Shown piece after piece: positions 17,187-51,382 of a stretch of 64,000 nucleotides of DNA. Positions within the stretch are counted from its first letter, which is position 1. Every line of letters begins with the position of its first letter. The position numbers and the translations under genes are program-made. The stretch spans positions 1-64,000 of the forward strand of contig JAVECL010000002.1 in NCBI GenBank assembly GCA_051942245.1. Direction: 5' to 3'. This DNA comes from Trypethelium eluteriae. Taxonomy: Eukaryota. Under the pieces are notes generated by a model. That model was not told where the DNA came from. It searched no databases and saw only the letters and a list, made by a program, of their open reading frames with translations.

Positions 17187-18047
17187 TCATCCGAACGTTT
17201 TCTGATTGAATTCATTAATGATCGACCGCGCAGCTCTGACGATTTCGAGGCAGTCGGGAGAGTCAGAATGACAGCATAGAGAGACTTCGTGCTCTCCGAT
17301 TGGCAGCTGTATTTTCTGTCCATTTATCGCCGTGACCGACGCTGTCTCAACTTGTTCGCGAATATGCTTTTGTGTCTCTTCTGCTGTCCACGCTCTGCTT
17401 TCTTCGTAAGTGTGAGTCAAACAATGGATTGAATAGAGAACGCACTTCTTTTTGCGGTCGATGACGAGAGTTTTATCGGAATTGTACTTGACGTCTCCGT
17501 ATAGCTCTGCGGTGAATGGCAAACCCAGTTCCTTTGCTACTTCTTCATGACACGTTCCAGCCAATCCAAATACTCTGATGCCCTTCGGCACGCCGGCGTA
17601 CACAGCTTTGCAAGTTTCTCTGTCACGATACATCATACCGTACAAGACGCCATGGGGTTTGACATGATTCAGCGGCAGACCTTCAACGTCGAGGAAAGCT
17701 TGGAGGGCCCCTATTTGATACCGAGTCATGGCCGTGAGCTCTTCCGGATACATTTTGATTTCGCGACGGCCGAAGCCTTGAACGTCTGGAAGGCCGGGGT
17801 GAGCGCCGACTGCAACGTTGTATTGCTTACAAAGAGCGACCGTCCGTTGCATGATCAAAGGATCACTATGGCGAATGTCAGTCTGTTCAGGTCTTTGAAA
17901 GGCCGACGGTGCTGGATACCCAGCGTGAAACCCGCAAGCCACGTTCGCGTGGTCAATCATCTGGATTAGTTCCTCATCAGGTCCACATTTGTAATTGCCA
18001 TATGCTTCTCCTAGATCTACATTCATCATAACCTTGTGCCTGACCAT
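17187..18047 (-). CDS. lamB: LamB/YcsF (PxpA, 5-oxoprolinase subunit A family) lactam-utilisation protein
   Basis: NVDLGEAYG, ANVACGFHAG|DP, GAHPGLPDVQGFGRR, HVKPHGVLY and LCCHSD motifs; two short in-frame introns. Confidence 0.9.
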   Translation of the reverse strand: MVRHKVMMNVDLGEAYGNYKCGPDEELIQMIDHANVACGFHAGYPAPSAFQRPEQTDIRHSDPLIMQRTVALCKQYNVAVGAHPGLPDVQGFGRREIKMYPEELTAMTRYQIGALQAFLDVEGLPLNHVKPHGVLYGMMYRDRETCKAVYAGVPKGIRVFGLAGTCHEEVAKELGLPFTAELYGDVKYNSDKTLVIDRKKKCVLYSIHCLTHTYEESRAWTAEETQKHIREQVETASVTAINGQKIQLPIGEHEVSLCCHSDSPDCLEIVRAARSIINEFNQKTFG

Positions 18048-18480
18048 TATCACCCTGGGGATAAGAAGTGTCAAAGCAATCCTGCTCGTCTTCTCAGCCC
18101 TATTTGCTACCGGATTGGATTTTCTGTAATATGTCGTTTCTAGACCCTTGTCCTGGGAATTGGTAAGGTAGTCTACGGTAACAGGTGTCAAGCTGCCCCA
18201 CCCTCTTCGGCTTATCGTCCCATCATCACGCCGAATTCAGCAAGCTGAGCGCGGTTGATGGTGATTCGACAGGCCATTAGTGTGTTTAGGTACCCAGGTA
18301 TTTTCGCGACAGAGGAGCGAAAGCCTCTTATCTGGGACAGATGAAAGGCGGGGTTCCGGACAGCCATGACGGATAGCGTTGAAAGACGGCAAGATGGCTT
18401 TATGACAATGTGGATTCATCGTCAACAAGTACCAAAGGAAGAGTGCAGGTTTCTTGGTTCTTCTTATGGATTGAGGAGCG
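18048..18480. promoter_or_regulatory. Bidirectional lamB/lamA promoter with GATA (AreA-type) and SYGGRG (CreA-type) sites
   Basis: 433 bp between divergent ATGs. GATAAG at 18060, CTTATC at 18211 and 18327; CTGGGG at 18055, CCCCAC at 18196, GCGGGG at 18348. Confidence 0.55.
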
Positions 18481-21400
18481 ATGCAAAAAATTAACTCTCT
18501 GCTGATTGCAAACAGGGGGGAGATTGCGGTACGCACGTTTCTGGACTAGGTTCAAGCTCTGACGTCACCCTGTAAACAGCCTCACTAATCTTATTTCCCC
18601 TTCGTCTAATATCAGGTCCGTCTTGCACAAACGGGGAAGAAACTTGGTATCCGTACCATCTCCGTCTATTCGGAAGCTGACGCGGCCTCGAGCCATGTAA
18701 AAGCTGCAAACGAAGCTGTCTTGCTGTCGGGCAATAGCTCGACCGTTTACACAGATGGCGAACAAATTGTCAGGATTGCCAAGGAGAAACGTGTCGACGC
18801 GATAATTCCGGGTTATGGATTTCTGTCGGAGAATGCAGAATTTGCACGTCAGGTCAAGGATGCTGACATTGCCTGGGTGGGTCCTTCACCTGAGGCAATC
18901 GAAGCATTTGGCATCAAACACGTAGCTAGAGATCTTGCGGAGAAGGCTGGAGTACCAATTGTCCCTGGAACCAAAGGTCTTGTCGACAATGAAGATGATG
19001 CGGTTGAGGCTGCACAAAGCCTCAGTTTCCCCGTAATGCTTAAGGCTACGGGAGGCGGCGGGGGTATGGGTCTTGTAACTTGCTCCACTGCTGAAGAGGT
19101 GAAGAATGGCTTTGAGACGGTCAAATCAAGGGGACAAACCCTCTTCAAGAACGCTGGCGTCTTCATTGAGCGGTATTATCCGTCAAGTCGACACATCGAG
19201 GTGCAAATCTTCGGCAATGGGCAAGGTGAAGCTATACATTTCGGTGAACGGGAATGCTCGATCCAACGAAGACATCAAAAAGTTATTGAAGAGTGTCCCA
19301 GTCCGTTCGTCGAAAAGCATGAAGGCATGCGCGAGAAACTCGGTGATGCAGCTGTGAGTCTTGCCAAGTCCATCAAATACGGCTCAGCGGGAACGATCGA
19401 GTATCTCGTAGACGACAATACAGGGGACTTCTTTTTCCTGGAGATGAACACGAGACTGCAGGTCGAGCACGGAATCACTGAATTGTGTTACAACGTGGAT
19501 TTAGTGGAACTTATGCTCAAGCAAGCAGATGCTGAGTTAGCAGGTACTGGTGGAATGTCTGTGGAAGAACTTCAGGCCTTGCAACCAAAAGGCCCAAACG
19601 GCGCAGCCATCGAAGCTCGAGTTTATGCTGAAAACCCCTTACGAAACTATGCCCCTTCTCCTGGTCTTCTACAAGAGGTAGAATGGAAGGAGCTTGAGGG
19701 TAGCCGAATCGACACATGGGTATTTACTGGATCAAATGTGACGCCAAATTATGGTCTGGCTAACCCTCCGTGTAAGATGAAAGCTACAGCTGACTTCTGG
19801 TAGATCCTCTCATTGCCAAGGTCATGCATCACGCACCTTCGCGTGATAGAGCTATTCGTGGCATACATAATCTCTTATCCGAATCACGTATTTGCGGTCC
19901 TCCTACTAATCTTGAATTTCTGGCTACAATCGTTACCAACCAAGATTTCGAGTCTGGGCGTACTCTGACTAATTTCCTAGATTCTTTCACCTTTCATGCG
20001 TCTGCTATCGACGTCCTCTCAGGAGGATCGTACACTCTAATCCAAGACTTAACTGGACGGCCTGCTGTTGGCAAGGGGATACCCCATTCAGGGGCTTTGG
20101 ACCCTGTTGCTCTAAGTATTGGTAATATGCTGGTCGGGAATTCTAGGAGCACCGAAGGTCTTGAGATAACTCTGAGTGGCCCGGAGCTTCGTTTCGTCGG
20201 TCCTGCCATTATAGCCCTTTGCGGTGCAGATATGGATGCGTCGATAGACGGAACTCCGTTTCCGATGTGGACCAGGCGGAGGATCTGTGCAGGACAAAAA
20301 TTGAATATTGGTAAAACCACCGCTGGAGGCTGCAGATCGTATCTTGCAGTCCACGGAGGTTTCCCGTCAGTGGCCACCTGCTTCGGATCCAAAAGCACTT
20401 CTCCTGTCGTGAATATTGGAGGATATCAAGGCCGTTGCCTCGCACCTGGTGATCTGTTGGCGATTGCGAAAATTCTACCAGACCATCTTCTTCATGATGT
20501 CATTCTACCCAAGCACTTGCGTCCGTCGTACACAAACAATTGGGAGATTATGGCCATGGTCGGTCCTCATGATGAAGGCTATATTGATCCTCAAGGGATT
20601 GAGATGATATATAATACCCAATGGAAAGTCTCTCATAACGCTAGCCGGAGCGCAATTCGTCTGGTTGGACCAATACCAAAATGGGCCCGTAAGGACGGCG
20701 GTGAAGGAGGCGCACATCCCAGTAATGTTGTCGAGTACGGTTACAATCGAGGGGCTATGAATTTCACGGGTGATGAACCTTGTATCTTTTCTGAGGACTG
20801 TCCAAATTTCGGCGGTTTCATCTCGTCCACTACAGTGATTCGTGCTGAGTTTTGGAAGCTTGGACAGATCAGAGCCGGTGACATGATTCGGTATCGAAGG
20901 GTTTCACTTGTCGACGCTTTGGTAGCCAGGGGTTCACTTGATGAGGTTCTTGATGCTATTGAGAATTCTCTCAGTGAAGACAAAGACCTCTCTAGCGTTT
21001 CAGTGAAATACCCCAGCGCCGTCGAATCAGATGACTGGGGCAAATCTATTATTTCAGAACGGGAGGCCAAGGGCAACCAACCAGCAATACGCTATCGGCA
21101 GGTCAGCTCAGATCCTTCTTGCCCTTCAACCCTCCTGAACTAAAATCGCATTAGGGTGGCGATGACTATCTCATCGTCCAATATGGCTTCGAGCAATTCG
21201 ACCTCAACCACCGCTGTCGTGTCTCCGCCCTTGAATCAGCTCTCCGCTCAACCACAACGCCCACCAGTATCCAGACACACCTAATCAACACTGTCGGCTG
21301 CTGTACTACCCTCACCATCTTCTACAATGGCTTTGCCCTCTCGCGTTTTGAGCTCGTGACCCACCTCCAAGCCCTTGAAGCCCGACTCGGCGACCTCTCC

Positions 21401-22439
21401 ACCACCAAGGTCCCATGCCGCCGCTTCCGCCTCCCTATCACTTTTCATTCGCGCGAGCAAGATGAAGCCACGGCACGCTACATGGCCAACCAACGGCCTC
21501 ATGCTCCCTACCTCCCGGATAACCTCGCCTTCGTCGCCCGTAATAATGCTCTCACTTCAGATCAGCTCAAGCACATCTATCTCACCCAAACTTTCATGGC
21601 GGTTGTAGTTGGCTTCTTCTGTGGTAACACAGTCTCCCTCCCTGTCGATCCACGCTGTCGCCTATCAGCGCCGAAAATGAATCCCTCGCGCGTCTTCACA
21701 CCTGCTGGGACCGTGGGTTGGGCCGGCAGCTGCATGTCCATCTACCCTGTGGATTCTCCGGGGGGCTACCAGATGACCGGACGCACGATCCCGATTTTCG
21801 ATCTGTACGGAGCAAAGCCTGGATTTGCGGAGAATCGTCCGTGGCTGTTTCGCGATTTTGACCTGCTGACGTATTACGAGGTTGACGAGGAGGAGATGCG
21901 TGACTTGTTGAGGAAATGGAAGACAGGAAGATGGCTATGGAGTTGGGAGGAGATTGAATTCGACATGGAGGAGCATAATCGATTGCTGGTCGAGACTAAG
22001 GAGGAAGTAAAGGTGATAAGAGAGCGGCAGGCGGCGGCGCAAGAGGAGATGAATCAGGCGGAGGAGGAGAGTCTGAGAAGATGGAGGGAGGAGAAGGCCA
22101 AGAACAAGGTGGATGAGGCGACAGTGGAGAAGTTATTAGATGGTGAGTTCGAAGCATGCAAGGATGAAGAACCAATCGTTAATGCAAAGGTATTCAGATT
22201 CCTCGATATTGACGGTGGAAGCTCCTGTCGATGCAAATGTGTGGAAAGTGGAAGTCGAGGAAGGAAAATTGGTCAAACCAGGACAGAGCGTTGTTGTCCT
22301 GGAAGCAATGAAGCTGGAAATTGCTGTGAAAGCACCGAATGATGCAACTACCGGGACAACTGTTGTTGAAAAACTGTTGGTAATGCCAGGTGATACTGTA
22401 AAAGCAGGCGGAAAGCTGGCCCTTCTCAGGAGGACGTGA
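18481..22439 (+). CDS. lamA: LamA-like / urea-carboxylase-like biotin enzyme: biotin carboxylase + carboxyltransferase (PxpC- and PxpB-like AHS2/AHS1) + biotinyl domain
   Basis: LLIANRGEIA|VR (intron 18529..18615), PGYGFLSEN, GGGGMG, RECSIQRRHQKVIEE, FLEMNTRLQVEH; GGEGGAHPSN; SPGGYQMTGRT; biotin motif EAMKLE. No amidase (allophanate hydrolase) domain is present. Confidence 0.88.
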
Positions 22440-22821: not shown

Positions 22822-25800
22822 CTATTCCCTCATCTCGCCAACGGAACCCCTGCTCAATCCCCCCCGATACCCAACACCGCTCTGCGGTCCCTCTGCCAGA
22901 TCCCGGATCTGCCCTGCGGCCATCCTCGCCTTCTCTCTCACATCCGCAACCGCATCCTGCTCCAGCGCTCTCGTCCGCTCCTCCATGCCCAGATATTGGA
23001 GCTCCTTTGCGCGGTGCCGGGCAGATGGGCCATCCGCACTATCCTCCACCCACAAGAGGTTCGTCACCAGCTGCACGCAGTGGCCGCGGACTCTCGGATC
23101 CGCGTGGACGAAGTGCGGCAGCACGGCCTGGAGTAGCGATTTCTGCGCGATGACCTGTTGGAGGTGTTTCGGGCGGCCGGCGGCTAGATGGACGAGGACG
23201 AGTATGGTGGCGTTGATGATTTCGGGTGGTTGATAAAAGGGAGTTTGATTCGATTGCTGGGCGGCGCTGGTGGTGGTTATAGGAGGGCTGGGAGAGATGG
23301 CCGGGACGCCGAAGGAGAAGCGTTTTGGAATCGATGAGGTGGTGTGATTGGTGAGGCCGGAGGCGGGCGATGGTGAAAAGGTCGAGCGAGGACGGAGTTT
23401 GGAAAGGAGGATGTCGAAGACGCGAGCAGAGCCAATGTTTTGGTAAACATGGTCGATCATGTCTGGGCAGGTGGCACCGTTGATGAGGTTGCGAAGGAAG
23501 TCGAGGGCTTGTTCTTGGATCTGAAGATCGTCGCGGCGAGCTAGAATAATGGGGTTTTGTTCGGCATTCTTGAACACTCTCAACCGCGATTTGTGGAGAT
23601 TAGTGCTTGTACTTCGGAGATTGCTGGGTTTGCTAAGGGTCCCCATGTCGTCGGTCATGGCGTCTTCGTCTTCTTGTTCTTCATCATCCGAATCTTCCAT
23701 TTCCATTGACTGCTCAACTGCATTGAGCAAATCTACTTGCTCGCCTGCAGCATTCGATACACCCATTGATGCAGTAGGATACTGATTTTGTCCTGCTTGA
23801 TCCTCCCCGGTCAGGATCTGTACAAGTAGCCCGGTCCCGAAATCATGCAGGCATTTTGTCTTTCCGTCAAATGGAGATTTTAAAATCACATGCTTGAGAG
23901 CCCACAAAGATAGATAGCGAAGCGTCGGGTTTGATGACCGGGCATGCTCAACCAATCTGTCCATGGTACCGGTAGACATCAACGTGTCCATCTCTTTATT
24001 TGAGGAGATGTTATTGTTGTTACTAGTCGATGAATCGGAGTCTTGCATTGGACTACCTGGGGCCGAAAGATTGATGATTACATCAGTTGCTGAGAGCTTT
24101 ATTTCTAGGATAGGATGCTTCAGGAGTTCGTATATTGGTTTGCCAATGCCTGCGTCGGTCAAATTCGTACGTAGTACACTGATCGAGCGAGCGAGTGTCC
24201 TTGCTGCGTAACATGCAGCTAGAATCACTCTGACTGGATTGCCATTTCGAGTGAAGTTGCTACCATTATTTGTCTTTATCCCTGAATATGAATATGGTTT
24301 CAAAGAGTCAATCAAGTAAGGAGTGATGGCGTTTTTCGCGACCTCCTTTCGGTGGTCCTCGATAAGTCCAGCCATTGCACCCAAAGCTCTCAAGGCACCT
24401 TCCCTGCAGCGCTCTACATGAACTTGCCTTAAAGATAGACCGGGCATGCCGATCGAAGTGGAGCCTGCCAGGTCTGTATCACCCCCGAGCACTGAATCTG
24501 AATCTGGCGACCACAGGGGCTTTGCAGGGGAAACAGCGTTGAAAGTGGCCTTGAGTAATTGCGCAAGCTTCTTGATCACCCCTGCATCTTGAGCAGCTGT
24601 TTGAAGAATTTTACTCTCATCGACTAAAGCAGCCAAGGCGAAAGGGGCTCGCTCTTGGACTAAAAGCTTCTCACGGTCCCGCACAAGATTCAGTGAATGA
24701 TCCGCCGATGAAGGTGAGCGGAGATATGGACTCGAGTTGTGGTCAATCATTTTGACAAGGATGGGTATACCGAGGAAAGCCAGCACTCGTTCTCGGGTAC
24801 CATTTGACGTGTTGATGCGTGGGTCCAGAGAGTTTGATCCTAGCACACCAGCAACAGACTTCAGCAACCAGAGCGCCGTAATCCTTGTTAATCCCTCCTC
24901 CGATCTGGCAATGTGAAGAAGCCAGGCAAACATGGGGCTATCTAAATCATCGGAGGATAAAGGCCTTTCAGGGGATGCTCGCGACGTATCTCGCGGAGTG
25001 CCGTAGTGATTTCCATAGCCTGGGAATGCTCTAGAAAACCCACTTTCGCCCTTTTTTTGCGGATTAGGGATTTGTGGGAGAAGTCGCTCTAAAGGGTTAA
25101 TTTGCAGTGGTGTCGAAAGACCACCAAGGAAAGGTCCGGCGTTCAGAGCAGGCGGTTGTGGCCGGTACGTGGGAAACACGGCGACGATGGAGGGGGAATA
25201 AAGAAATCGAGCGGTTCGATATTTCGAGCCCTCCACGATTCCACGGATAGCCTCGAGATATATACTCAGATCGGACTTTGGTGGGGGAGAGGGAAGGGTA
25301 GCAATGACTGCCGCGTCGACACCAGGAAGCACATAGCCAAGCTGAATGATGAGTGCGGCTAATCGAGAGCTCAATCCGTCGAGGATTCCAGCCCTAACGA
25401 GAACATTTTGATAGTATTCTTGTTGACAGGTTCTGGCGATCAATTGAACGACCAGGGATACTTCCCGGGGATAAAAGGGCAATGCCAAGATCTCATTAAA
25501 CGTAGCAGCGACTGCTCGAGAGCTCAGCGCAGTAGTGAGCTCCTTTCCTACTGGATAATGTTCGGTTTGATGTGGGAAATCTGGGATCAATTGTACGGTG
25601 TCCGCGATAACTATGAGTGTACGAAGTGCCGCGACGATAATTCGAGGCGGTGATTTGGTGGGAATAATGCAATCAAATAGAGGAGAGAGCGTTCCGGCTT
25701 TGATCAGAGGAGAGACGAATGAAGGACCTCCTATCATATTGTTAACTTGCTTCATTGTTGATGGTTCTTAACGTACCTTGCGCAATACTCTCCGTGACCA

Positions 25801-31788: not shown

Positions 31789-34049
31789 ATGTCGCACACC
31801 AAAGACCTACTTCGAGCGGAGGAGACCCCCTCGTACCTCCAAACTATCGCCAACGCAACTACGTCTCGCGTCCTGTAAGACTTCGAGACTTTCGCCATAC
31901 CAGGCAGTGGCCACCTGCTGGATTTCTTCTTGACGCGGATATATCTCATGGGGATGCAGAGGATATTATATGCGCCGGGGCCTCCACTTTCAAGGGTTTC
32001 TGTGAAAAGATACCGAACGCTCCAGATCAATGTTACTGCCATGCAGTCATGGAATCAGAACATGCTAGCCGGCGAGACCGCGCCCTTCCACACCATGAAG
32101 CATTTCATTTGGCTTCTCTCGTCCTTGCCGAAACCGATTCCACCGATTTCGTCTGGGAGACATTGGAGCAGCCGTCCATGGCATACTTTAGTGGAAAAAT
32201 CGCCGGAACTTGCACGCTTGAATACTATGTTAGCCAAGCCGGAAATACTCGACCCATTATCAAATATCCCTCAGATGCGGAGCCTAAGAAGGTGACAATG
32301 CTTACAATATTGGACAGATTGAGACAGCTGGAGACTGGCTTAGACGCAGAAGTCAGTAATTTACTATATCTTCTTCAGATGGCGACTCACACATCCTCCC
32401 TAGAACCCTAATGACCTTTACGGTCATCTGTACCACTTTTTCATTGAAGATCCGGAGCATGAGAGTGACCCTCATTACGGAATTGATACGCAAATAGCAG
32501 ATCTCTTGAAGACCCTAGGTTCTGCAAGCTATGGATGGATTGACTTCAGTGATCCTCGCCATCAGGTGCTTGGCAAATTTGTCAACAGCAAAGATACCAG
32601 CATCAAACATCGTTTCTTCCATCAGCTGGTCCTTTCGGTCGAGCTGTACTTGCGAATCCATTCTCCTACCCTTTACAGCCAAGCCGATCGAAACAAAGTT
32701 CTTACCCAGTTACCCTTGAAGATTGCGTGGGATCTTGCGGTTGCCCAGAGATGGCTAGAAAATGTTTTTATTTCAAAGACGACCAGTGGAGAAAGCAGTC
32801 CTAAAAAGAGTACTTTTACGTTCGATTTGCGCACCAAGAACCGCCAGAAGGAAGCGTTGCAGGATTTTATGGACATGATGAAGTGGCCAAATAAGCTCGA
32901 AGTGGAAAGGGTTCTGTTGGAAACCGATCACCGTGCGAAACCAGTTGAAGATCGCTCCTCAGACGCCTGGTCTTGGTTCAGTGGTGTTATCCTTCCAGGC
33001 CCTACTCTTCCCTGGCTTCTCATAAACTCTCTGATTGATTGCGATCCCAGATCCAGCGACAATCTCTATTATCTGACGCACATGACACCCTCTTCGGGAT
33101 TCCAATATCTTAGCAATACGTACTGGTCAAGCCGCTGCGTCGTGGGCAAGGTTCTTGGAGCGGCTCGTGGTGTTAACGAAACTGCTGGATGGGTTGGACC
33201 TTGTCTTTATTCACCAGATCTCAACCGCATTGAATGTGTGCGAGTGCGCCAATTACCTGCTCTCGACTCGCGCCCACTCCCTGAAGACGTTGCCAGCATG
33301 AATGTGCGAACGTCGCCCCTTGGACCCCTTGACGACGCCTACCCTGTTAATGACTATGAGCTGATAACTCCAGACACGGACGACATAACTGACGCCATTC
33401 GCATCCAGAAGCTCGGTTTCCTGCCACTCAAGGAGCAGCCAGCTGCTTCGAAAGGTGCCCACTCGAACAAAAATCGGCCCGTGGTATGGGATGCGGCCAT
33501 CATCTTCGCCTGCGACGGTGAAACATGTCCCATGAGACTGCGATACGACATTAGTTTCATTACTGCCTTTCCCTGTCACGAAGGGCCTCATGGTAGTGAT
33601 CTCACCTGCAAACTTTTCCCGACCGCGCAACTAATGAGCCTTCATCTATAGTCCTCTTCTACGACTATGCCTACCGCGCCATTAAAGTTGATCAAGGCCT
33701 TCACAATATCCATAACTGGGCCGACCGAAATCGCCCTCGCTCAGAGTCCTTTCCCACCGCCATCCCGTTCCCATCCGACCCATCCCGTTCCTATCCGCAC
33801 ACTCCGCAAGATACTTGCTCTGCCGCCTCCGTCCTCGATGAGGTCCTTGTCATCGAAGCTCTCGGCGTCTCGGATAATGAGGTCTTCGCGCGGGCATGGT
33901 GCGCGCATTGGGGTGTCAGTGCCATTGTGGCAAACGTCAAGGAGACTTGTATGGCATGTGCAGTGAGGGAGGCCTACGCAGCGTGCGTGAGCGTGGTAAT
34001 CTTGACTGAGTGTGGGAAGGTCGGAGAGGTGGAGGAAGCTCGAGGATGA
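31789..34049 (+). CDS. Conserved hypothetical fungal protein, multi-exon
   Basis: ATG 31789 with GT-AG introns linking ORFs 32049..32411, 32506..33651 and a last exon ending VLVIEALGVSDNEVFARAWCAHWGVSAIVANVKETCMACAVREAYAACVSVVIL...TGA 34049. Exon junctions are approximate. Confidence 0.75.
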
Positions 34050-35783: not shown

Positions 35784-37130
35784 TCAACCGAAATCTTGTC
35801 GTCCCTGTTCCCCAGCATCCACCGGCTCCCTGAAGATTTCGGTCCAGTTCGGTATCTCCATGGGCCCAGACAAATCTTCCCATAGCTCAGGGGCAGCGGC
35901 TACGGTCTCAGTGGTCAGAACTCTGCTCCCAGTTGAGGAGGCCCCCAACCCGATCTCCCCTTTGCCTTGGAGCCGCGGATCGATGTTGGAGTCGAGAGCA
36001 GATTCTAGATCTGCGATTCCGCTGGGTGGAAAGGAACAGGGAGCCGGGGTGTGGGATGTCGGCTCAAGCGGCACCTCATGAGGATACAATCGTTCTTGAG
36101 TCGAGGAGGCTCCTGCTTCTGCGCTCCTCTGGGATCGTACCTCAAGCTTATGCTGCCTCCTGCTCCTCCCGTCCTCCCTGTTGAGGGGTGCTCTGGTTCT
36201 GGAGACTGCCGACGGCCGGAATCGCTGCTGAGCTCGCTGTAGGCGCGAGCTTCTCCGGCATTTGGGGTCCGGACATCTGTCAATGGCCTCGTGGATGACC
36301 TCTCTGGGGATGCTGGCGCCATAACCTGCGTCTCTGATGGCGCGCATTGTTGCATCCCGCCCACAAGAGTGATCTTCATGGAGCGAATCGTGAATGGCCC
36401 AAAAGACATCGAACCAGTCCTCAGTTGGGACGACGTAGCCGTCTTCCTTCGTCCGATTGTCTTTCGTGGCCTTTGCACCACTTCCATGGGGCATCATCCT
36501 GACGAGGTTGAATCCATTCGGGCCCCCTGCCCTGTACCTGAACAGATGCATGGCGTTGTACTTCTCGGGGGCGTCTTTGGTAAGGACGGTACCTTGCTGA
36601 ATGCCTATGATCCTGTTGATCTTCTCTTGGGGTAGGCACTTCCATCCTTTCTTTTGCCGTAGGAAAGTTCCTTGGATGCCCCTAAATGCATCTCGGAACT
36701 CCTCAACGTCCTTTGGTAACGCCTCCGAGAGCTGCTCAGCTGAGAACTCCGCCTTGCCCCTCTTCACTGCCGGGTTTCTTGCGAGGTGCCCCCCAACAGC
36801 ATCTTGATAGGTAGAGGCGCCCTCGTTGAAGGGTGCTGGCACTGTCGCCAGTGAGTTCTCCACATTCGTGCTCAGTTGCCCGCCATCCTGTTCAATGGGA
36901 TTTTGGATCGGGGCAAACTCCACTAGGAGAAGACACGAGTAACAGAATAAGTTTCCAAGTGCGCAGAAGGAAGCCCTACAGTGTATGCAGTGCCTACCCG
37001 GTCCCTCTTGGTGTGTGGCGACCGTGCTGGGGATCGCCTCATCCAAATCCCTTGCCTGCCCGAAACTGCAAATGAAGCACTCGCTGCCAGGTGCTATTTG
37101 CGTTTTACAGTTTCTGCATACGGAATCCAT
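35784..37130 (-). CDS. Intronless orphan protein with two N-terminal C4 zinc-ribbon motifs and an integrase-type H2C2 zinc-binding domain
   Basis: CRNC..CFIC and CIHC..CYSC; VVPTEDWFDVFWAIHDSLHEDHSCGRDATMRAIRDAGYGASIPREVIHEAIDRCPDPKC matches the integrase H2C2 pattern (H..H.GRD.T...IPR......CP.C). No DDE core follows. Confidence 0.7.
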   Translation of the reverse strand: MDSVCRNCKTQIAPGSECFICSFGQARDLDEAIPSTVATHQEGPGRHCIHCRASFCALGNLFCYSCLLLVEFAPIQNPIEQDGGQLSTNVENSLATVPAPFNEGASTYQDAVGGHLARNPAVKRGKAEFSAEQLSEALPKDVEEFRDAFRGIQGTFLRQKKGWKCLPQEKINRIIGIQQGTVLTKDAPEKYNAMHLFRYRAGGPNGFNLVRMMPHGSGAKATKDNRTKEDGYVVPTEDWFDVFWAIHDSLHEDHSCGRDATMRAIRDAGYGASIPREVIHEAIDRCPDPKCRRSSRLQRAQQRFRPSAVSRTRAPLNREDGRSRRQHKLEVRSQRSAEAGASSTQERLYPHEVPLEPTSHTPAPCSFPPSGIADLESALDSNIDPRLQGKGEIGLGASSTGSRVLTTETVAAAPELWEDLSGPMEIPNWTEIFREPVDAGEQGRQDFG

Positions 37131-39199
37131 GTCTTCTACAAGTGAGTCAGAAGGATGAAATAATGTCGAAGGGATCCTTTTCAGGAAACGAACCTTTGCC
37201 GTTTTCTGTGATTTTTCTGATTGCTTGGTAGAAACTCGACAGAAGTAATACGTCTTCAGCTTGAAGTCAGGTCAGAACTGGGGATAATCTCTCGAAGAAG
37301 TCGTCGTTGTGATGTCGTACCTCGTCTGAGATGTATGCTTCTTGCTGACTCTGTATCGCTGTTAGAGTTACTGCAACGGTAAAGGGTTTGAAGAATGGGA
37401 AGATAGATTATTGTAAGAGTGTTATGTGCAGAAGAATTGCGTAGAAGTGGGTGGGTGAGAGGGCTGAGCTTTTATATCTACCTATTTGATAGAGTTCAGG
37501 AACCGTGGACTTGACACATGGTTGTGATAGTACGTGGACGAATTTTGCGTTTGTGGGAGTGGATATTAGCATGTGGTAGCCCGTAACGACTCCAGGTGAT
37601 AGTAGCACTATGGAGATTAACTTTACCACTACCAGAACGATATCATTACCCATACTCGGTATTCGGTTCAAGGGGAAGAAAACAGAATAGGTAGCATGGG
37701 ACAGACTTTCTGGGCTCCATTCTTGTAGAACACATACCTGATTTGCAATGCTGACAGTTATACTCAAACAGTAAAGTGAGACAGGTTAACATGTGGGACG
37801 CCAACACTGTGCTTATAGCCGCTGTCAAGAGTGCTGTAGGGAATCCTAATAGCAGTAAGTTTGAATTAGTGAATGGAGCTTTGAGCACAGTCGTGTAGCG
37901 AACCAATCAAACATTGACCCAAACAGCCCAGTCGCCAGTTAGCTCAGCAGATTTGTAGTACATCACCGCAGCAGTATAAGCTTTTCGGAGAGCAACGTAA
38001 CGCCCTTCGGTGGCGTAAATAGCGTAAACTTTGCCTTAGAGACAGTAGACAACAGTATTAACGACCAAGAATAGGACAAATTGTGCATACTTTCGGGGAG
38101 GGTCGAGTGGCAAAACAGCTTTGAAGTTGGGTGTGATCGTTCTAGACGCTATTGACTGGCACCTCGAACCTAGCAAGAGTAACCTCCCAATCCCTCCACC
38201 GTTTGGGGAAAGCGCTTCGCGCGTTGTGCTGAGCTGTGGCAGGCAGCTGAGCGGACGCCGCCTACTTAGCCGCACGGCCACTGGCCAGCAGCGGCCAATC
38301 GCGACCAACGCCAATAAAGTAGACTCAAACTATCCACTCAATCAAGTCGGTAAACACAGTAGCATTTAATATACATGCCTGTGACTACCTGGCTAGCAAG
38401 CTCCTTCGTCCGAAGGTCGTAGGAGAATCGATGGTGGGCAGGACAGCATCGACGGATGGACAGGCCTAGAAGAGTGCACAGAAGCCTTTAGGACGCGGCA
38501 TTCGCGCATGCTCCGAACTCTCTTTAGTTGGGATGTATTCCAGCCACAGCAACGATGTGCCCCTCGCTAGATTAATTTTAGCCTCAGACAAGCTGCTTGA
38601 GCAACCTAAACAACCCCTGCAAGATCCTAGAAACCAACCGAATAAGGGAGAGAAAGCTGTAAACTGATGGGCTAGGGAGTCAGATGAACGGAAATATACT
38701 ATTGCAAGTATAATCTTTGGATAGAGAGAGTAGAAGGTACCACAGGGTCTTACTTTTCGAGCCTCTTACTGGGTGGCCATCGAGTATGCGGCAAGAGGAC
38801 TGGACTGATTTGATGGAGTACTACCCAATAGCATGCATTGACTGCTCATGAGGCATACTTTGAGCCCATGAGTAGCGTGGGCACGAGGCACGACGACTCG
38901 TTGCAGAGCAACGCAGCAAGTAGTCTCTGAATCCATGCAATTAATGCTGGTTATTACGCCAGCACCTTCATCTCAACCTGAGTCCTCCTTTCGGTGCATC
39001 GCGCAAGCATCCAGTCCCTTTATCTCCAAAAATAATCTCCTCAGTAGCTGGTTCGACTTTTTCCTTAGCTCTCTGTTGGACCTGAACCGTCGCCCACGAC
39101 CCCTTCCTTATGAAGAGAGACGGCAATACACAAGCTCAGAAAAGACCTTTGGTCCCGTGCTTGAGTTGTGTGCGCTAAGCGACCTCTGGTGGTGTAGAC

Positions 39200-41550
39200 C
39201 GCAACTTTCAGCAGGGCTCGCAGATTGTTATTTCATTGGGCTGGCATTCTGGCAAGACCATTGTCTGGTTGCCTCCTACCCGATCTGGGCATCTCGTCAC
39301 GAGCAGAACCGAAATGGTGAGGCTGCCATGACCGGAAAAGTCCAAACAAACGGTGGTCTGTGCGTCGCCCCTTGCTCGCGTGGTGTATTGACGGGTGGAA
39401 CCCTGAGGCTGGGAGCCCTACTTGGGACTGAACCCTAAACCCGGGAGGCGGGAAAACTTCGTAAGCAACGGCGCAACGGGCCGACCTGCTCTACTATACC
39501 TGAGGTACCTCCGGGCAATTTCAAGACGGTCCACTATTGTCCGAGGGTGCATCCAGCATAGATTCGTCCATTATTCCCTTGTCCTCTGGCATTTTCTCCC
39601 GGCGGTATTAATGTGAGCATGGCGCCATCTCCACAAGGTAACTCCGTTTGGTGCCGAGCAACTGGCACCATCCTACGCAGGCACTAGATGAAATTCCTGC
39701 AATGTATCTTGTCCTTGTCTCATTTATGAACGTAGGGCCGGAAAACATATGGGCGAACATAGCGCAATGAGTCCTCTGCGCTCTTACACTCCAGAGGGGT
39801 CACACAAAAAGCTCACCTTCCGGTGAAGGCGTTCGTGCGACTGAGAGATTGGCTGTGGATTCTGATACCCGTCGAACTCAAGAGCGTGAGGCTTCATGTT
39901 GATGCCATGATGAAAAGAGGCAATAATTGCTTGAGATTCGGGAGAGATTGAAGGGACTGATACGAGAGACTAGACAAGTCTGCACTGCCTAAGACAAAAG
40001 ACAACCAAATGGGGCAAAAACTATCATGGAAACAGCGGCGCATTCATGCAGAAGAGTCCAGAACTGAAAAATCGGCCGTGAAAATGAATATCAGTGTGCT
40101 TTGATTGCGCAAGCAAGATTTCATCCAATCGCATCTCTTGAAGCTGTTCCTAGATTGATGCAGATTGGGGCAAATCATAGATGCACTGAGTGACGGATCT
40201 GACGACAGAATGGAATTACGAAATGGCTTTGAAAATCTTTCTCAAAGCCGTAAATGTGCCATAGCTGTTGACGCACCATTGGAATCGTGAAGCGTGACGG
40301 TAGCGCAGAGATCAGAGCTTCTCCTTCCAGGTAGGTATGCTCATATGACCAGGATAAGTACCTGGGTAGGGCCTCGAAACTTGCATCGATCATCATTCCC
40401 TCTCGTACGGGAAACACCCTCCAATAATTCCCAATAAGATGTTACCCTTGATTTCTTCCTCTGGCGCGTATAGTTATGAAGCTCAGGGCCCTTTCCCTAC
40501 CAAATGACGTGTCCAGCCACGGGAAATTCGCCTGGCTTATGCGAGGCGAGAACTCTTAGCCATGTTGAGCTCGAACTGGTTTAGTGATGGTTGAGCCTGC
40601 TCAGCTTTGGATCATCTCCCGCCCTGTATTGCTTGTTATCATCCCTGACACACGGTCTACTTTCGGATAGCTTCAGTGGTGCAACGCTATGGTAGGAACG
40701 GGTGGATTGTGACTATTCGTAGGAATGCACTGAGCAGCCCGAGACACTACTTACATTTTTTCATGACAGCCGATAACCAGACGGCAAATTCGCCTTGAAA
40801 CGCTCTTTCTTTTGACCCCGAACCCGCCATGTCGTCTATTCATTTTGAGCTGACCGAGTTCTATGCAATCTGAGTGCAGACTGCCTCCTTGCAATACTTG
40901 GCCACTGATCGCATCCAAAAAGCATGACGGCCATCCGAGGAAGTCTTCATCTCTAGTTATCGAACGACGGTGTCTTACAGAGCTTCATTGTCCGGCTCAG
41001 AATTTTGTGCGGATTGTGCTGATGTTCAATGATCATTAGGGGATCATTGAATGGATTACACAGTGAACCAGCGTTAGCCTATTGGAAGTCGCAAGTAGCT
41101 CTTCAACAAGCGCTTCAGTGATCGGCCAATCCCTCAAATCCTAAGTAATCGTCTCCAAATGAAGTTAACGCGTAGATCTACCACTAACCAGGTATCTGGT
41201 AACGGTAAACCAGGCATTTTCTGCTCGATGTTGCCATGAGTGAACTGTCCAGCAAATTCCTCTGCTCAAGAGTGATTTGAGAACTTAGGATTTCGTGTCA
41301 GTCTATTTCTGCTATTGTACAGAGAAGAATAACAACCCAATTGACGCCAGTAATGCAACATACTGGGTATACGAACCTGAGCCACCTTTTCACTAAAATA
41401 TCAGGATGGTCGATCGAAATTCAACCCCACATTTTGGAACATCTGACCCTTCAGATTACCTCTTTCTGGGAGTGAGGCCCATGGTGTAGGCAAAATTTTA
41501 ATCCTACCAGGAAACCAAGGGCCTGATCTCCAGAGCCGAAAGAGTTAAGC
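39200..41550 (+). ncRNA. Candidate telomerase RNA / long structured ncRNA (boundaries approximate)
   Basis: ORF-poor region; AACCCTAA at 39431-39438 follows a hairpin (39401-39426) and is enclosed by helices 39388-39396/39867-39875 and 39375-39380/39885-39890; several further strong stems are present. Confidence 0.5.
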
Positions 41551-41635
41551 TTTTTCCAATATCACAGAAAGATTCATATCTGCCGCGATGTTCTTCTTGA
41601 CTTTATCCCGCCCTTCACCACTGAAGCAGATAGAT

Positions 41636-42578
41636 TTAGACAGGAAGGTTGAATCGTTTGCCTTGCAGAACCCTATGAAGTCGACGTTAGTCAATCTTGA
41701 CTTGTTCGAGGAAAAGGACAGCCCGAAGCGGACCACGATGACGGCACACTGACTTTGTGTAGTAGATATAGAAGAAATCCGAATACAGGATTGTCTGGAT
41801 AATGCCGGCGACGACTGCAATTGGGTCAAAATACCCCTCAGCAAAGTATCGGTACAGCCAGTTCGGGATATAGAGTGTTCTGTAGGCTCCCAAGGCAAAT
41901 AAATAATGTGTTGTTATTGTTTCTGCTTCGCCCGTACGCTGCAACATGAACAGCTGTGGAAGGATAGCGACGGATTCGAGCCAGATCGAGAATGCCCAGA
42001 GCATCTGCTTCATATCAGCATCTTCGCCGGAACTAAAAGCTTCCTGCTGTATCTCACCTCTGTCGGAGTGTATTTGTAAGGGAACAAAACGGCCATGGCT
42101 CCAGCAAAACCCAACAAGTATTGCACTTTGAAAGTATCCAGGTTCGGATCATGTGTAGGCTTATAGTCATTGAGCATCAGATAGACAATGTATGACGACG
42201 AGGCGATGAAGATAATCTTGAAGACGGTGTTGTAGAGGCTCTTTGGCTCGTAGAAGGTCCAGAAGAGATCAAGGTACCGTGTAATGTAGACAGTGAGATA
42301 GAGGAACTGCGATTTGAAGGATATACCAGATGCGCTCTTGAACTGATTGTCAGAGCGTCCCACCGAAGAACAAAGCCACAGGTGCAGCTTTCGAGTGTCC
42401 GGAAGTTTTCAGCTTACGTTCGATGTTTTCATCTTGTGGAGGAGAATCAGGATCGATACTAAATGGGACAAATCCCCTGCAAATAGAAAGCGAAAGCATC
42501 AGCAACTGGCCGAATGGGGCCAATTGGAGGGTCACAAGACGGCAGCAGTCGCGCACCTAGTATTCTGAAGATATTCAT
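41636..42578 (-). CDS. ERD2: ER lumen protein-retaining (HDEL/KDEL) receptor, multi-exon
   Basis: [82 protein letters not shown]; last exon [12 protein letters not shown]. Confidence 0.96.
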
Positions 42579-48288: not shown

Positions 48289-51200
48289 ATGGATGACAGT
48301 GTCAGTCCAAGAGGCCCAAAGCGGATGGCATCATCCGATCTATCTAATGATCCGAGCAAACCCGAAAAATTGAAAAGATCCGGCGGAGATCATAATGCCT
48401 TTTACGTTCGAGGTCCTGATAGAGATTATTTGAACGACTCACGTCAAGACTTTTCAACTTCTGCAGGTAGACAGACACACCCAGAATATGGACACGGGGA
48501 CATCGCCGCCAACAGCTCGCTCCAGACTTCCAAGTACCCGGTATCTTTAGATGGTTCGTGTAAAGATGGATCCAGCAGTGGAATGAAAGCTACAGAAGCA
48601 ATCATGAAGCCGCATGAGAACGCATTTTCTAGCCAAAAAGGGGGCGCCCAAGCCGTCAATCGTAGACCAGGTGAGTATCTCAATCCGAGATTAAAATTTA
48701 GAGATTACAAATAAGCTAATATCTAAGCAAGACCCCTTGCAGGTCGGCACTTCCAATCGTTCTCCTACTACTCCCAACGAGGAAATTGCAGCCCAATCTC
48801 GAGTTGTAAGCGATAACCTGATTCTGCAGTGTCCGAGTAGCTTAATGACTATTCAGGCCTCTGCGCCACCGTTGTCATTACCTGAACCTCCAGTCCAGAA
48901 TCTTTCAGCTTTGTCCCCCCGTCCATCCGTCACTTCAGAGGTACCGACTTTCTATGACACGATAACTGAGAACGCGTCTTTGTTACGACAAATCGCGTCG
49001 AAGACTCAGCAACATGAACAATTATTGTCGCGATATCAAGCAGTCGTTCACGATGAAGAGCAAAGCAGAGTCTTTTATCTTGACTTTCCTGCTCTGGAAA
49101 AATCAAAACAGTCAGCTGTCAGCAAAGCCAAAGTGGCATTGGAAAATTTAGAGCAAGATTTGAACAATCTCCAAGCGCAACACACGGAATCTCAACAACG
49201 CTTTGCCCTTTTTCTTGAAAGGAATATTTCCCAGAATTATACGAGCCAGAAAAATCAAAATGAAGCGCACCAAGCTCAAATTGCTGCCTTGCAAAATCAA
49301 ATTTGCAAATGTCAGGCGGACATCCAGTCGAAGGATGAGGCACTGAAATCAATCACCGGTCAACTAGACAAGATGAGAAAGGACTTCACGATAGACGCCA
49401 GGCAGGAGATTAGTGAACTACAGAAAAGCCTAAGTGATCTTCGCTCAAGCCATAAGGATGCTCTGCGCGATATAGGATATCTGCAAGCCGATTCGAGTCG
49501 TCTGAAGAAATTTAGAGGAGAGTTCACCTATGACGACTTGGACAAAATGTGGAAGCGTTCCAAGAGTGCTTCTGAAGGCATCAAGGACATTCGGGATCAG
49601 GACTTGGTACCGAAGAAAGATGTTGACGAGCTTAGAAGTTCCTTTGACAAACGTCTCGATTCAATAGCCCGGCGACTGGGAATGACAGAAGAACAAGGAG
49701 CGAGACTCGTTACATTAGGCTGTAAGTTAGAGGATCTCGAAAAGAAAACAGATCAGATAGCCAACCTCACATCTGGAGGATTCAACGGTCTGGTTCAAGC
49801 TTTGGCGAACTCTTCGCCTTCCATCCTTACAGAAATGCAAAGCTTCAAGCCAAAACTAACAGAGGTGAAAGGGGACGTCAAGAATTTAAAAGAGGCATTG
49901 GATCAGTGCATCCTGGATGTCAAAAAACTTGAGAATGACCGATTGAGTTCTCATCCGACGTCTTTGGCGTCTACTGATGAAGCTATGGCGCAAAATTTGG
50001 AGGAATTTGCGGAGACGCTCGATAATGAGGTCAAAGGGCGTGTGGACAAGACGCTCGCGGTTTTCCACTCTCGTGAAGATTTGGAAATGGCCCTAACACG
50101 CGTTCGACAGGACAATGGAGTTTTCGTTATGAAACAACTAGCAACCTTTGAACAGAAGGTGATGAGTTTACTGAAAGAAGACACTTCACGGATCAGACAG
50201 GACCTCACCGAATTGAAATCGCGGCCGATAGCGGAGGACATTTCAAGCTTCCACAATAGAGTTATGCTGGTTGAAGGAAAGATGGATGAGCTAGCCTCCA
50301 AATTGTTGGCGCAGCAGTCGCGACACTTTGCTGACAGAATCTCTCGGATTGAAAACGTCTTGAAAGCGATGTCCCCAAACCATGATCTTCCCACCAAAAG
50401 CTTTGGCGAGCCTTGCGGATCTACAACTCCAGCTATGGAAAATCCGGTACTTGATTCGCAACCTCAGCTGTCCGATTACGCTGCGACTGGCGTTGGCTCT
50501 GCAGGCGAAAAGTTTGCAACAGTCAAGTTCGTGCAAGATCGCCTTATGGAAGTGTTCATTGTCATCAACGGACTGAGGCAGGACACAAACACATACGATG
50601 AGCGTGTCCGGAAACACGATAGTCGCCTCGACGAAATCTGCAGGTCCTTAGAAACAGTCCGTGTCCCCATCCAGGGTCTCGAGAAGCGATTCAACGAACT
50701 GACAACCGACGATCTGCTGAGCTTGATCATGCATGAGATCAGCCGCACTTTCCCAGATGCTCGCAACCTTCAGCAAGTAATCAACCACTTTCATCGAATG
50801 ATGAATGAACTCCATAGCCCTGCGGGTACACTTGGCAAGCAGTCACGTTTGATCGACCAATTGTTGAAAGATGTGCATCATTTACAGCAGACCGTTCCAG
50901 CTAACGGCACAAACGGGATGGGTGACGCTATAATGCGTCATGAAGCAAAGATAGGCGAATTGGATAAGGCGCGTGAAGACCTTTCTCAACGTGTGGAGCG
51001 TGTCCTCCAGACACCAACCACTCTCTCAAGAAACGTGCTCGACGAGAGGCAATGCGTCCAAAACGCCCACGACAGCCACATCATCTATCCTGACAAGTTA
51101 CAACGGGACTTGGAGGAACTCGTGAAGCGGGTGAAGGAGATTGAAAATGTAGAAGGGACAGCGAGAGTGATTATCTTACTGAGGCGTCTCGAGCAAGACG

Positions 51201-51382
51201 TGCGCGAAATATCGACGCGTGTGGGTCAGCGCGAGAACTTGGTGGACACAGTTCAGGGGCAAGTACGGAGCTTGGAGGGTCAAGGAAATGCGCAGGGAGA
51301 TATGGTGGCAAAGATGGCGGCCGCGGTGGATGAGCTAAATGAGAAGATTGGGCTGCCGTCGATGTTTGAAGAATTGACCTGA
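48289..51382 (+). CDS. Large (~1000 aa) coiled-coil protein of unknown function
   Basis: ORF 48289..48670 joins ORF 48737..51382 in frame through intron 48671..48731 (GTGAGT...GCTAAT...AAG); extended heptad-like L/E/K/Q-rich segments. The N-terminus is uncertain. Confidence 0.72.

Follow-up and report, generated by a model that had tools for sequence, protein, structure and literature searches.

A candidate telomerase RNA gene in a 4.2-kb intergenic gap of the lichen-forming fungus Trypethelium eluteriae

An open-reading-frame-free gap next to ERD2

The stretch of DNA analyzed here (the window; 64 kb of Trypethelium eluteriae, a lichen-forming Trypetheliales [Dothideomycetes] fungus) contains a 4.2-kb gap free of open reading frames (ORFs) at positions 37300-41545. 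The plus strand of this gap, from ~39200-39350 to ~41140, probably encodes the telomerase RNA (TER) of this fungus, and we describe it as a candidate gene on the basis of its sequence. The gap is bordered by an orphan ORF on one side and by ERD2, the 3′ end of which is turned toward the gap, on the other. To the right of ERD2, the Pfam annotation of the window places a GH85 gene and RVB2/TIP49. The GH85 protein is 100% identical to one annotated in Viridothelium virens, the next matches being from Trypethelium (85%) and Bathelium (50%), which points to a filamentous ascomycete of the Trypetheliales.

35784-37271, minus strand: orphan ORF, bordering the gap on one side
41545-42410, minus strand: ERD2 (Pfam ER_lumen_recept), bordering the gap on the other side

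A sequence-only reading of this locus, which had proposed a TER between the two genes, noted ~2.3 kb without a credible ORF. This holds, and the empty stretch is actually wider, since none of the 46 stop-to-stop ORFs of at least 45 aa within 37300-41545 matched Pfam at an E value of ≤0.01. The longest frame in the gap spans 188 aa from stop to stop (38872-39435) and terminates at the TAA of the 8-nt motif that we consider the candidate template. A homologue of this frame was sought among 192 candidates and none was found, nor was any annotated entry of the same species identical to it in the searched range of 103 to 329 residues. The base composition of the gap is ordinary, and transposon-like repeats and AT-rich mutated stretches were looked for there without any being found.

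A template-like motif preceded by a boundary-like sequence

The candidate template and the element proposed to delimit it occupy the following positions.

39431-39438, plus strand: candidate template 8-mer, AACCCTAA
39431-39442, plus strand: 12-nt extension of the 8-mer, AACCCTAAACCC
39401-39427, plus strand: candidate boundary element of the template; local hairpin (39401-39426), weak, with TTGGGA (39422-39427) on its 3′ side

As RNA, the template reads AACCCUAA(ACCC). The 8 nt are complementary to TTAGGG repeats and the full 12 nt (AACCCUAAACCC) to TTTAGGG repeats; the sequence-only reading had pointed to the 8-mer at 39431-39438 and to its extension for this same complementarity, and both are present in the DNA as it described them. 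Among Pezizomycotina, TTTAGGG telomeres are on record for a few species (Wangiella dermatitidis and Penicillium polonicum), which makes the 12-mer plausible as a template; the 12-nt template may specify TTTAGGG repeats. When 39250-41140 was folded, the template was predicted to be mostly single-stranded, with a mean unpaired probability of 0.75 that corresponds to the 95th percentile of 8-nt windows.

The hairpin at 39401-39426 stops 4 nt short of the 8-mer; an asymmetric internal loop separates its GGCU/AGCC stem (4 bp, 3-nt loop) from CCC/GGG. The 3′ side of the hairpin leads into a 17-nt string, TTGGGA-CTG-AACCCTAA (39422-39438). A search for TTGGGA-N3-AACCCTAA retrieved this single copy from the window and none from 100 shuffles. 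Our reference was supplementary alignment S1 of Kuprys et al. 2013 (PMC3603654), with ten Aspergillus-group TERs, in all rows of which a near-invariant combination of T.GGGAA, 4 nt, and ACCCTAA constitutes the 3′ strand of the boundary helix and the template. Judged by eye, TTGGGA-N3-AACCCTAA resembles the T.GGGAA-N4-ACCCTAA of that alignment, with nearly equal spacing (PMC3603654).

Two other placements of the template were rejected. The second copy of AACCCTAA in the window, at 32404, is without TTGGGA and lies between two long ORFs. A TER on the minus strand would have to use the only CCCTAA found there (41036-41041), which is no more than a 6-mer within the loop of a hairpin.

Ordered blocks reminiscent of Aspergillus TERs

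Downstream of the template, several blocks resemble those of the Aspergillus-group TERs by eye, and they stand in the same order. The first of them is as follows.

39513-39540, plus strand: GGGCAA..AAGACGGT..ACTAT block, 75-102 nt after the template, by eye like the Aspergillus AAGACGG block

AAGACGG is invariant in the ten Aspergillus-group rows of the alignment, where it is located ~100-135 nt after the template (PMC3603654). Farther on, a pyrimidine/purine hairpin followed by ACAAAAA (39770-39812) is similar by eye to Aspergillus CS4, and UCAAGAGCGUGAGGCUU (39878-39894) to the invariant Aspergillus block of the three-way junction (TWJ) and P6.1. Finally, CGGCC, [C]UAAGUAAUC, and CUAAC recall the Aspergillus 3′ end in their order and spacing, again by eye (PMC3603654).

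A pseudoknot-like pairing

Two long-range pairings downstream of the template combine into a pseudoknot-like arrangement.

39582-39589 with 39791-39798, plus strand: pseudoknot-like pairing S1, UCCUCUGG with CCAGAGGG
39613-39618 with 39811-39816, plus strand: pseudoknot-like pairing S2, GUGAGC with GCUCAC

This arrangement (39582-39816) has a U-rich upstream loop (CAUUUUCUC) and an A-rich downstream one (CACACAAAAA), the A-rich part being similar to Aspergillus CS4. Of 500 dinucleotide shuffles, 9 contained a pseudoknot of such description, as did 2 out of 74 blocks of the window, 39582-39816 being one of the two. We also observed that GTCCTCTG is present in two copies, at 39581-39588 and 39770-39777, either of which can pair with CAGAGGGG (39792-39799). 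A local hairpin and the long-range pseudoknot-like pairing are therefore alternatives.

An intron-like element at the presumed 3′ end

The 3′ end of Aspergillus TERs comprises CGGCC, a U-run, UAUAAGU, ~34 nt, and GCUAACU, and it is described as being cut by the first splicing step only (PMC3603654, PMC4299874). The best candidate for such a terminal intron in the gap is the following.

41123-41191, plus strand: best terminal first-step-only intron candidate, made up of CGGCC (41123-41127), 13 nt, CUAAGU (41141-41146), 36 nt, ACUAAC (41183-41188), and AG (41190-41191)

Written out, 41123-41191 reads CGGCC, 13 nt, CUAAGUAAUC, ACUAAC, AG. The underlying pattern TAAGT-N25-55-CTAAC has two occurrences in the window versus a shuffle mean of 1.70 per 128 kb, so that ~0.02 would be expected in a 1.76-kb strand. 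The element at 41141 lies 1.71 kb after the template, compared with ~1.85 kb in the Aspergillus alignment (PMC3603654), and, starting with C, it is not an ordinary intron.

Other signals of this kind, and a folded domain, are found on the same strand.

40073-40095, plus strand: alternative 3′-end signal, CGGCC, 12 nt, AUCAGU (40090-40095), which would give a compact RNA of ~0.8 kb; only weak branch-site candidates downstream
40354-40359, plus strand: AUAAGU, an Aspergillus-type 5′ splice site of non-canonical form, sole copy in the region; no CTRAC branch site after it
41236-41241, plus strand: AUGAGU, 5′ splice-site-like with a non-G first base, after AUUUUCUG; pyrimidine tract and ACAG 74 nt on, no good branch site
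41004-41138, plus strand: 3′ domain that folds within a long closing helix (−44.2 kcal/mol, z of −2.54, 2 of 200 shuffles as good)

A further AUGAGU, at 39767, was rejected as a 3′ end because it falls inside the putative core. The opposite strand of 41004-41138 folds similarly (z of −2.47), and this domain is thus uninformative on the strand. Within the domain, TTCAATGATC/GATCATTGAA (41025-41051) form a perfect inverted repeat of 10 bp, with ATTAGGG in its 7-nt loop (AUUAGGG in the RNA; CCCTAAT on the minus strand). This repeat, which exposes the telomeric G-strand hexamer in a plus-strand hairpin loop, is located ~90 nt before the best 3′ processing candidate. Also inside the candidate RNA, ACGGGAAATTCGCCT (40519-40533) and ACGGCAAATTCGCCT (40781-40795) constitute a direct repeat of 15 nt, its two copies differing by one mismatch and being 262 nt apart.

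TER or ordinary spacer

The assignment of a TER to this strand rests on TTGGGA-N3-AACCCTAA, on the ordered Aspergillus-like blocks, on the intron-like 3′ element, and on the single-stranded template. It is also favored by the 4.2-kb gap without coding signal and by the rarity of the pseudoknot-like pairing (9/500). The rival that survives best is ordinary non-coding spacer, at most a long non-coding RNA, in which the motifs arose by chance and the true TER lies elsewhere in the genome. We regard this as rather unlikely, since it needs joint coincidences on one strand, i.e., the 17-nt motif (0/100), the intron-like element (~0.02 expected), and the Aspergillus-like blocks in order, and leaves a 4.2-kb gap without coding signal otherwise unexplained. 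A spacer would nonetheless accommodate a number of observations that weigh against a TER, and these are brought together in the remainder of this section.

Motif frequency is one of them. The 8-mer occurs in the window at a chance level (two copies versus a shuffle mean of 1.24, with at least two copies in 33 of 100 shuffles). By a rough estimate, a genome of ~37 Mb would contain on the order of 1000 chance AACCCTAA sites and ~1 chance TTGGGA-N2-5-AACCCTAA. Structure around the template is equally undistinguished. The boundary hairpin put forward in the sequence-only reading (39401-39426) does exist 4 nt upstream of the 8-mer, but it is weak, and the upstream partner of the strand just 5′ of the template (−15.7 kcal/mol) is no better than those in shuffles (−16.0 ± 2.2 kcal/mol). 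The same applies to the long-range helix that was proposed to enclose the core, the 5′ side of which is the following.

39375-39396, plus strand: 5′ strands of the proposed core-enclosing helices, CUCGCG (39375-39380) and UUGACGGGU (39388-39396)

UUGACGGGU (39388-39396) pairs with ACCCGUCGA (39867-39875) over 9 bp with one G-U, and CUCGCG (39375-39380) with CGUGAG (39885-39890) over 6 bp, again with one G-U. Both pairings are thus where they had been placed, and we agree that their G-U pairs favor the plus strand, but neither helix length nor fold energy exceeds chance. Of 200 shuffles, 64.5% allowed the 90 nt before the template to form a helix of at least 9 bp, with at most one G-U, with the 660 nt after it. 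The 526 nt at 39370-39895 fold at −170.9 kcal/mol versus −173.7 ± 7.0 kcal/mol for shuffles (z of +0.40), 63 of 100 shuffles being at least as good. Long-range duplex energies were uninformative. With helices, boundary hairpin, and fold energy all at chance level, the structural case made in the sequence-only reading falls, whereas its conclusion, a TER on the plus strand with the template at 39431, is still the best single explanation of the locus.

The pseudoknot-like pairing is subject to similar reservations. We looked at the locus for a canonical pseudoknot, in which the helices are contiguous and the upstream loop has 4-5 consecutive U, and found none. The pairing at 39582-39816 is non-canonical, with 172 nt between S2a and S1b and a local hairpin (39770-39802) that competes with it, and the descriptor used to count such pairings was written after this candidate had been seen. 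In the Discussion of PMC3592445, published fungal and vertebrate TER pseudoknots are described as having no nucleotides at the helix junction.

The TERT-binding junction (the TWJ, or CR4/5) is the other conserved domain that failed to emerge. The sequence-only reading had located no CR4/5, and strict and relaxed descriptors likewise delivered nothing convincing to us. The strict P5/P6/P6.1 descriptor, which the Aspergillus junction would satisfy, had 0 matches on either strand of the region versus 32 in the whole window, and a strict P6.1 scan of the region was no more convincing. The relaxed descriptor retrieved two loci versus ~0.5 expected, its chance rate being 0.28 loci per kb per strand.

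39834-39898, plus strand: TWJ candidate 1, with P5 CGUG/CAUG, a long irregular P6, a single A, and P6.1-like GAGC-GUGAG-GCUU (39882-39894)
40674-40732, plus strand: TWJ candidate 2, with P6.1-like AUUC-GUAG-GAAU (40715-40726) beside a closing helix; the descriptor's chance rate is not exceeded

The P6.1 loop of candidate 1, GUGAG, has A at position 4, where the consensus NUNGN has G. Candidate 1 shares bases with the 3′ strands of the enclosing helices (39867-39875 and 39885-39890), and therefore both cannot be right. A covariance-model check had been suggested along with the sequence-only reading; our Rfam search of the window and three subregions gave no TER match. At the gathering score, no TER family was retrieved from the whole window (which fungal TER models Rfam 15 contains was not established). 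At an E value of ≤10, the searches of 38000-42500, 39250-40000, and 39385-39560 returned only the unrelated sR39 (E value of 3.4) and lincRNA-p21 (E value of 8.7).

The 3′ end and the Aspergillus resemblances call for the same caution. The best 5′ splice site begins with C, whereas the descriptions of Aspergillus TERs give A at this position, and the existence of three further 3′-end candidates (40090, 40354, and 41236) indicates that such motif matching is permissive. Every similarity to Aspergillus noted here is a judgment by eye, made in part post hoc and versus a distant class.

Telomere box or protein-coding gene

TTAGGG-type boxes are found in ascomycete ribosomal-protein gene promoters. 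AACCCTAA might be a telomere-box site for a Myb-like factor of the Tbf1/Teb1 class, within the promoter or enhancer of an unannotated transcript, instead of a template, and the second TTAGGG in the loop of the 10-bp inverted repeat at 41025-41051 would fit such a role. We consider this improbable. The nearest gene upstream starts 2.1 kb from the site, and it is the 3′ end of ERD2 that the site is turned toward. Downstream of the site, there is no ORF for which a homologue was found, and the motif is not enriched in the window; moreover, a telomere box leaves TTGGGA, the ACCC extension, and the intron-like element unexplained.

An unannotated intron-rich or lineage-specific protein-coding gene, to which the 188-aa frame ending exactly at the TAA of the 8-mer and the intron-like signals on the plus strand could be ascribed, is very improbable in view of the Pfam result for the gap (0/46), the failure to find for this frame either a homologue or an identical same-species entry, and the C, not G, with which the best intron-like element begins.

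A model for the candidate TER

Returning to the TER as the preferred explanation, we infer its transcription, template use, boundary function, pseudoknot, CR4/5, and 3′ processing from the sequence, and they would operate as follows. An RNA polymerase II precursor would start ~100-250 nt upstream of the template. TERT would copy either AACCCUAA or the full AACCCUAAACCC (39431-39442) onto chromosome ends, and the element that terminates in UUGGGA, 3-4 nt upstream of the template, would bring copying to a halt. Were all 12 nt used, a DNA end in GGGTT would be realigned through 5 bp with AACCC and extended by TAGGGTT in every round, thereby generating TTTAGGG repeats. Use of the 8-mer alone would instead yield TTAGGG with a 2-nt alignment. 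The mature 3′ end would be produced at 41140/41141 by a spliceosome that carries out only the first step on CUAAGU...ACUAAC-AG (41141-41191), as it does in other filamentous fungi.

These elements can be assembled into a single, more specific picture, which we put forward as doubtful when taken as a whole. It would be a TER unlike the described Pezizomycotina type in three respects. Its 12-nt template, 5 nt of which serve for alignment, would specify plant-type TTTAGGG repeats, and its terminal intron, subject to the first splicing step only, would begin with C instead of A and have its first AG only 4 nt past the branch. In this same picture, the TERT-binding junction would be either a compact variant immediately following the template-pseudoknot core (39834-39898) or a structure diverged beyond the P6.1 rule.

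TER genes are known as a class but usually escape annotation. If confirmed, this one would be a TER from Trypetheliales, an early-branching lichen-forming order of Dothideomycetes; no TER described from Trypetheliales turned up in the literature, in searches for which the name of the order was not itself a term. If true, the candidate predicts TTTAGGG as the telomere repeat of the species when the full 12-mer is used, could, through C at intron position 1, represent a new way to stall the spliceosome once the first step is done, and would test the reach of the vertebrate-like P6.1 rule in fungi. If the locus is not a TER, it shows that fungal spacers easily give rise to motifs resembling a template and to helices that can be drawn.

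Comparison with known fungal TERs

The candidate has in common with the Aspergillus-group TERs its intergenic, non-coding location and the distance of ~1.7-1.9 kb between template and 3′ signal. Also shared are a 5′ splice site in which a non-G first base is followed by UAAGU and a CUAAC branch site ~35-45 nt later (PMC3603654). In other respects it differs from the group as represented in that source. There is no overall similarity that can be aligned by eye and no Rfam match; the window has no U-run between CGGCC and the splice site, and base 1 of the intron is C instead of A. The window lacks GGAUCAAAG..AGGCUUGUC, the invariant TWJ block, as such; the canonical CS3/CS4 pseudoknot was not found in it, and the template may specify 7-nt repeats (PMC3603654). 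The neighboring genes are different as well, with no ZPR1 in the window. Aspergillus synteny, given as ZPR1 plus a gene for a TATA-binding-protein-interacting protein, was therefore rejected as an argument; RVB2/TIP49, 4 kb away, is at most a possible counterpart of the second gene meant there, and within Aspergillus itself the synteny of TER is known to be broken (PMC3603654). Nor were RTP1 or a MAPEG gene detected in the window.

Reported TER sizes are 2425 nt in M. graminicola, 2049 nt in N. crassa, and 1584 nt in A. nidulans (PMC3592445). With the TERs of N. crassa and 72 Pezizomycotina (Qi et al. 2012/2013), the candidate shares the size class and a short template of ~1.5 repeats, as well as, for its putative elements, the order of boundary element, template, pseudoknot, TWJ, and 3′ end (PMC3592445). 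In contrast to those RNAs as described in that work, their defining P6.1 (a 4-bp stem with a 5-nt loop, NUNGN) was not found in canonical form in the window, and neither was a pseudoknot of contiguous helices with a U-rich upstream loop (U-A.U triples) (PMC3592445).

As to 3′ processing, the candidate and the TERs that undergo the first splicing step only have in common an intron-like element past the presumed mature end, a non-G base 1, a consensus branch site, and a nearby AG (PMC4299874). Aspergillus has A at position 1 (AUAAGU/AUACGU) and fission yeasts have GUCAGU-type sites, whereas the window has C; unlike in these systems as described, the first AG in the window is only 4 nt after the branch A (PMC4299874).

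A scan of metagenomes for the boundary-template-AAGACGG pattern yielded 11 loci, none of which resembles the window beyond the pattern itself (blastn, best E value of 2.1). Most of them look like chance matches in unrelated low-GC contigs. Only one, L007 (316-420 of a 1016-nt contig), has a fungal-like GC content (0.48). It carries TTGGGAACCTTAACCCTAAATCGAGGG flanked by CCTCGG, and a boundary-like helix can be drawn around its template-like motif; L007 may be another fungal TER fragment or a chance match. A scan of genome contigs, made in search of related DNA with the Aspergillus TWJ motif, returned 0 loci.

Other features of the window

Away from the gap, two long open frames, of 981 aa (22825-25767, minus strand) and 895 aa (48695-51382, plus strand), are without a Pfam family at an E value of ≤1e-4. 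The 895-aa frame has one weak match, to ArlX (5e-4). Both are probably lineage-specific or poorly modeled proteins. In addition, a biotin carboxylase/carboxyltransferase gene (CT_A_B, CT_C_D) at 18610-22339 on the plus strand adjoins a LamB/YcsF gene at 17190-18236 on the minus strand, a pair whose predicted domains give it the layout of a 5-oxoprolinase or urea-amidolyase-type cluster.

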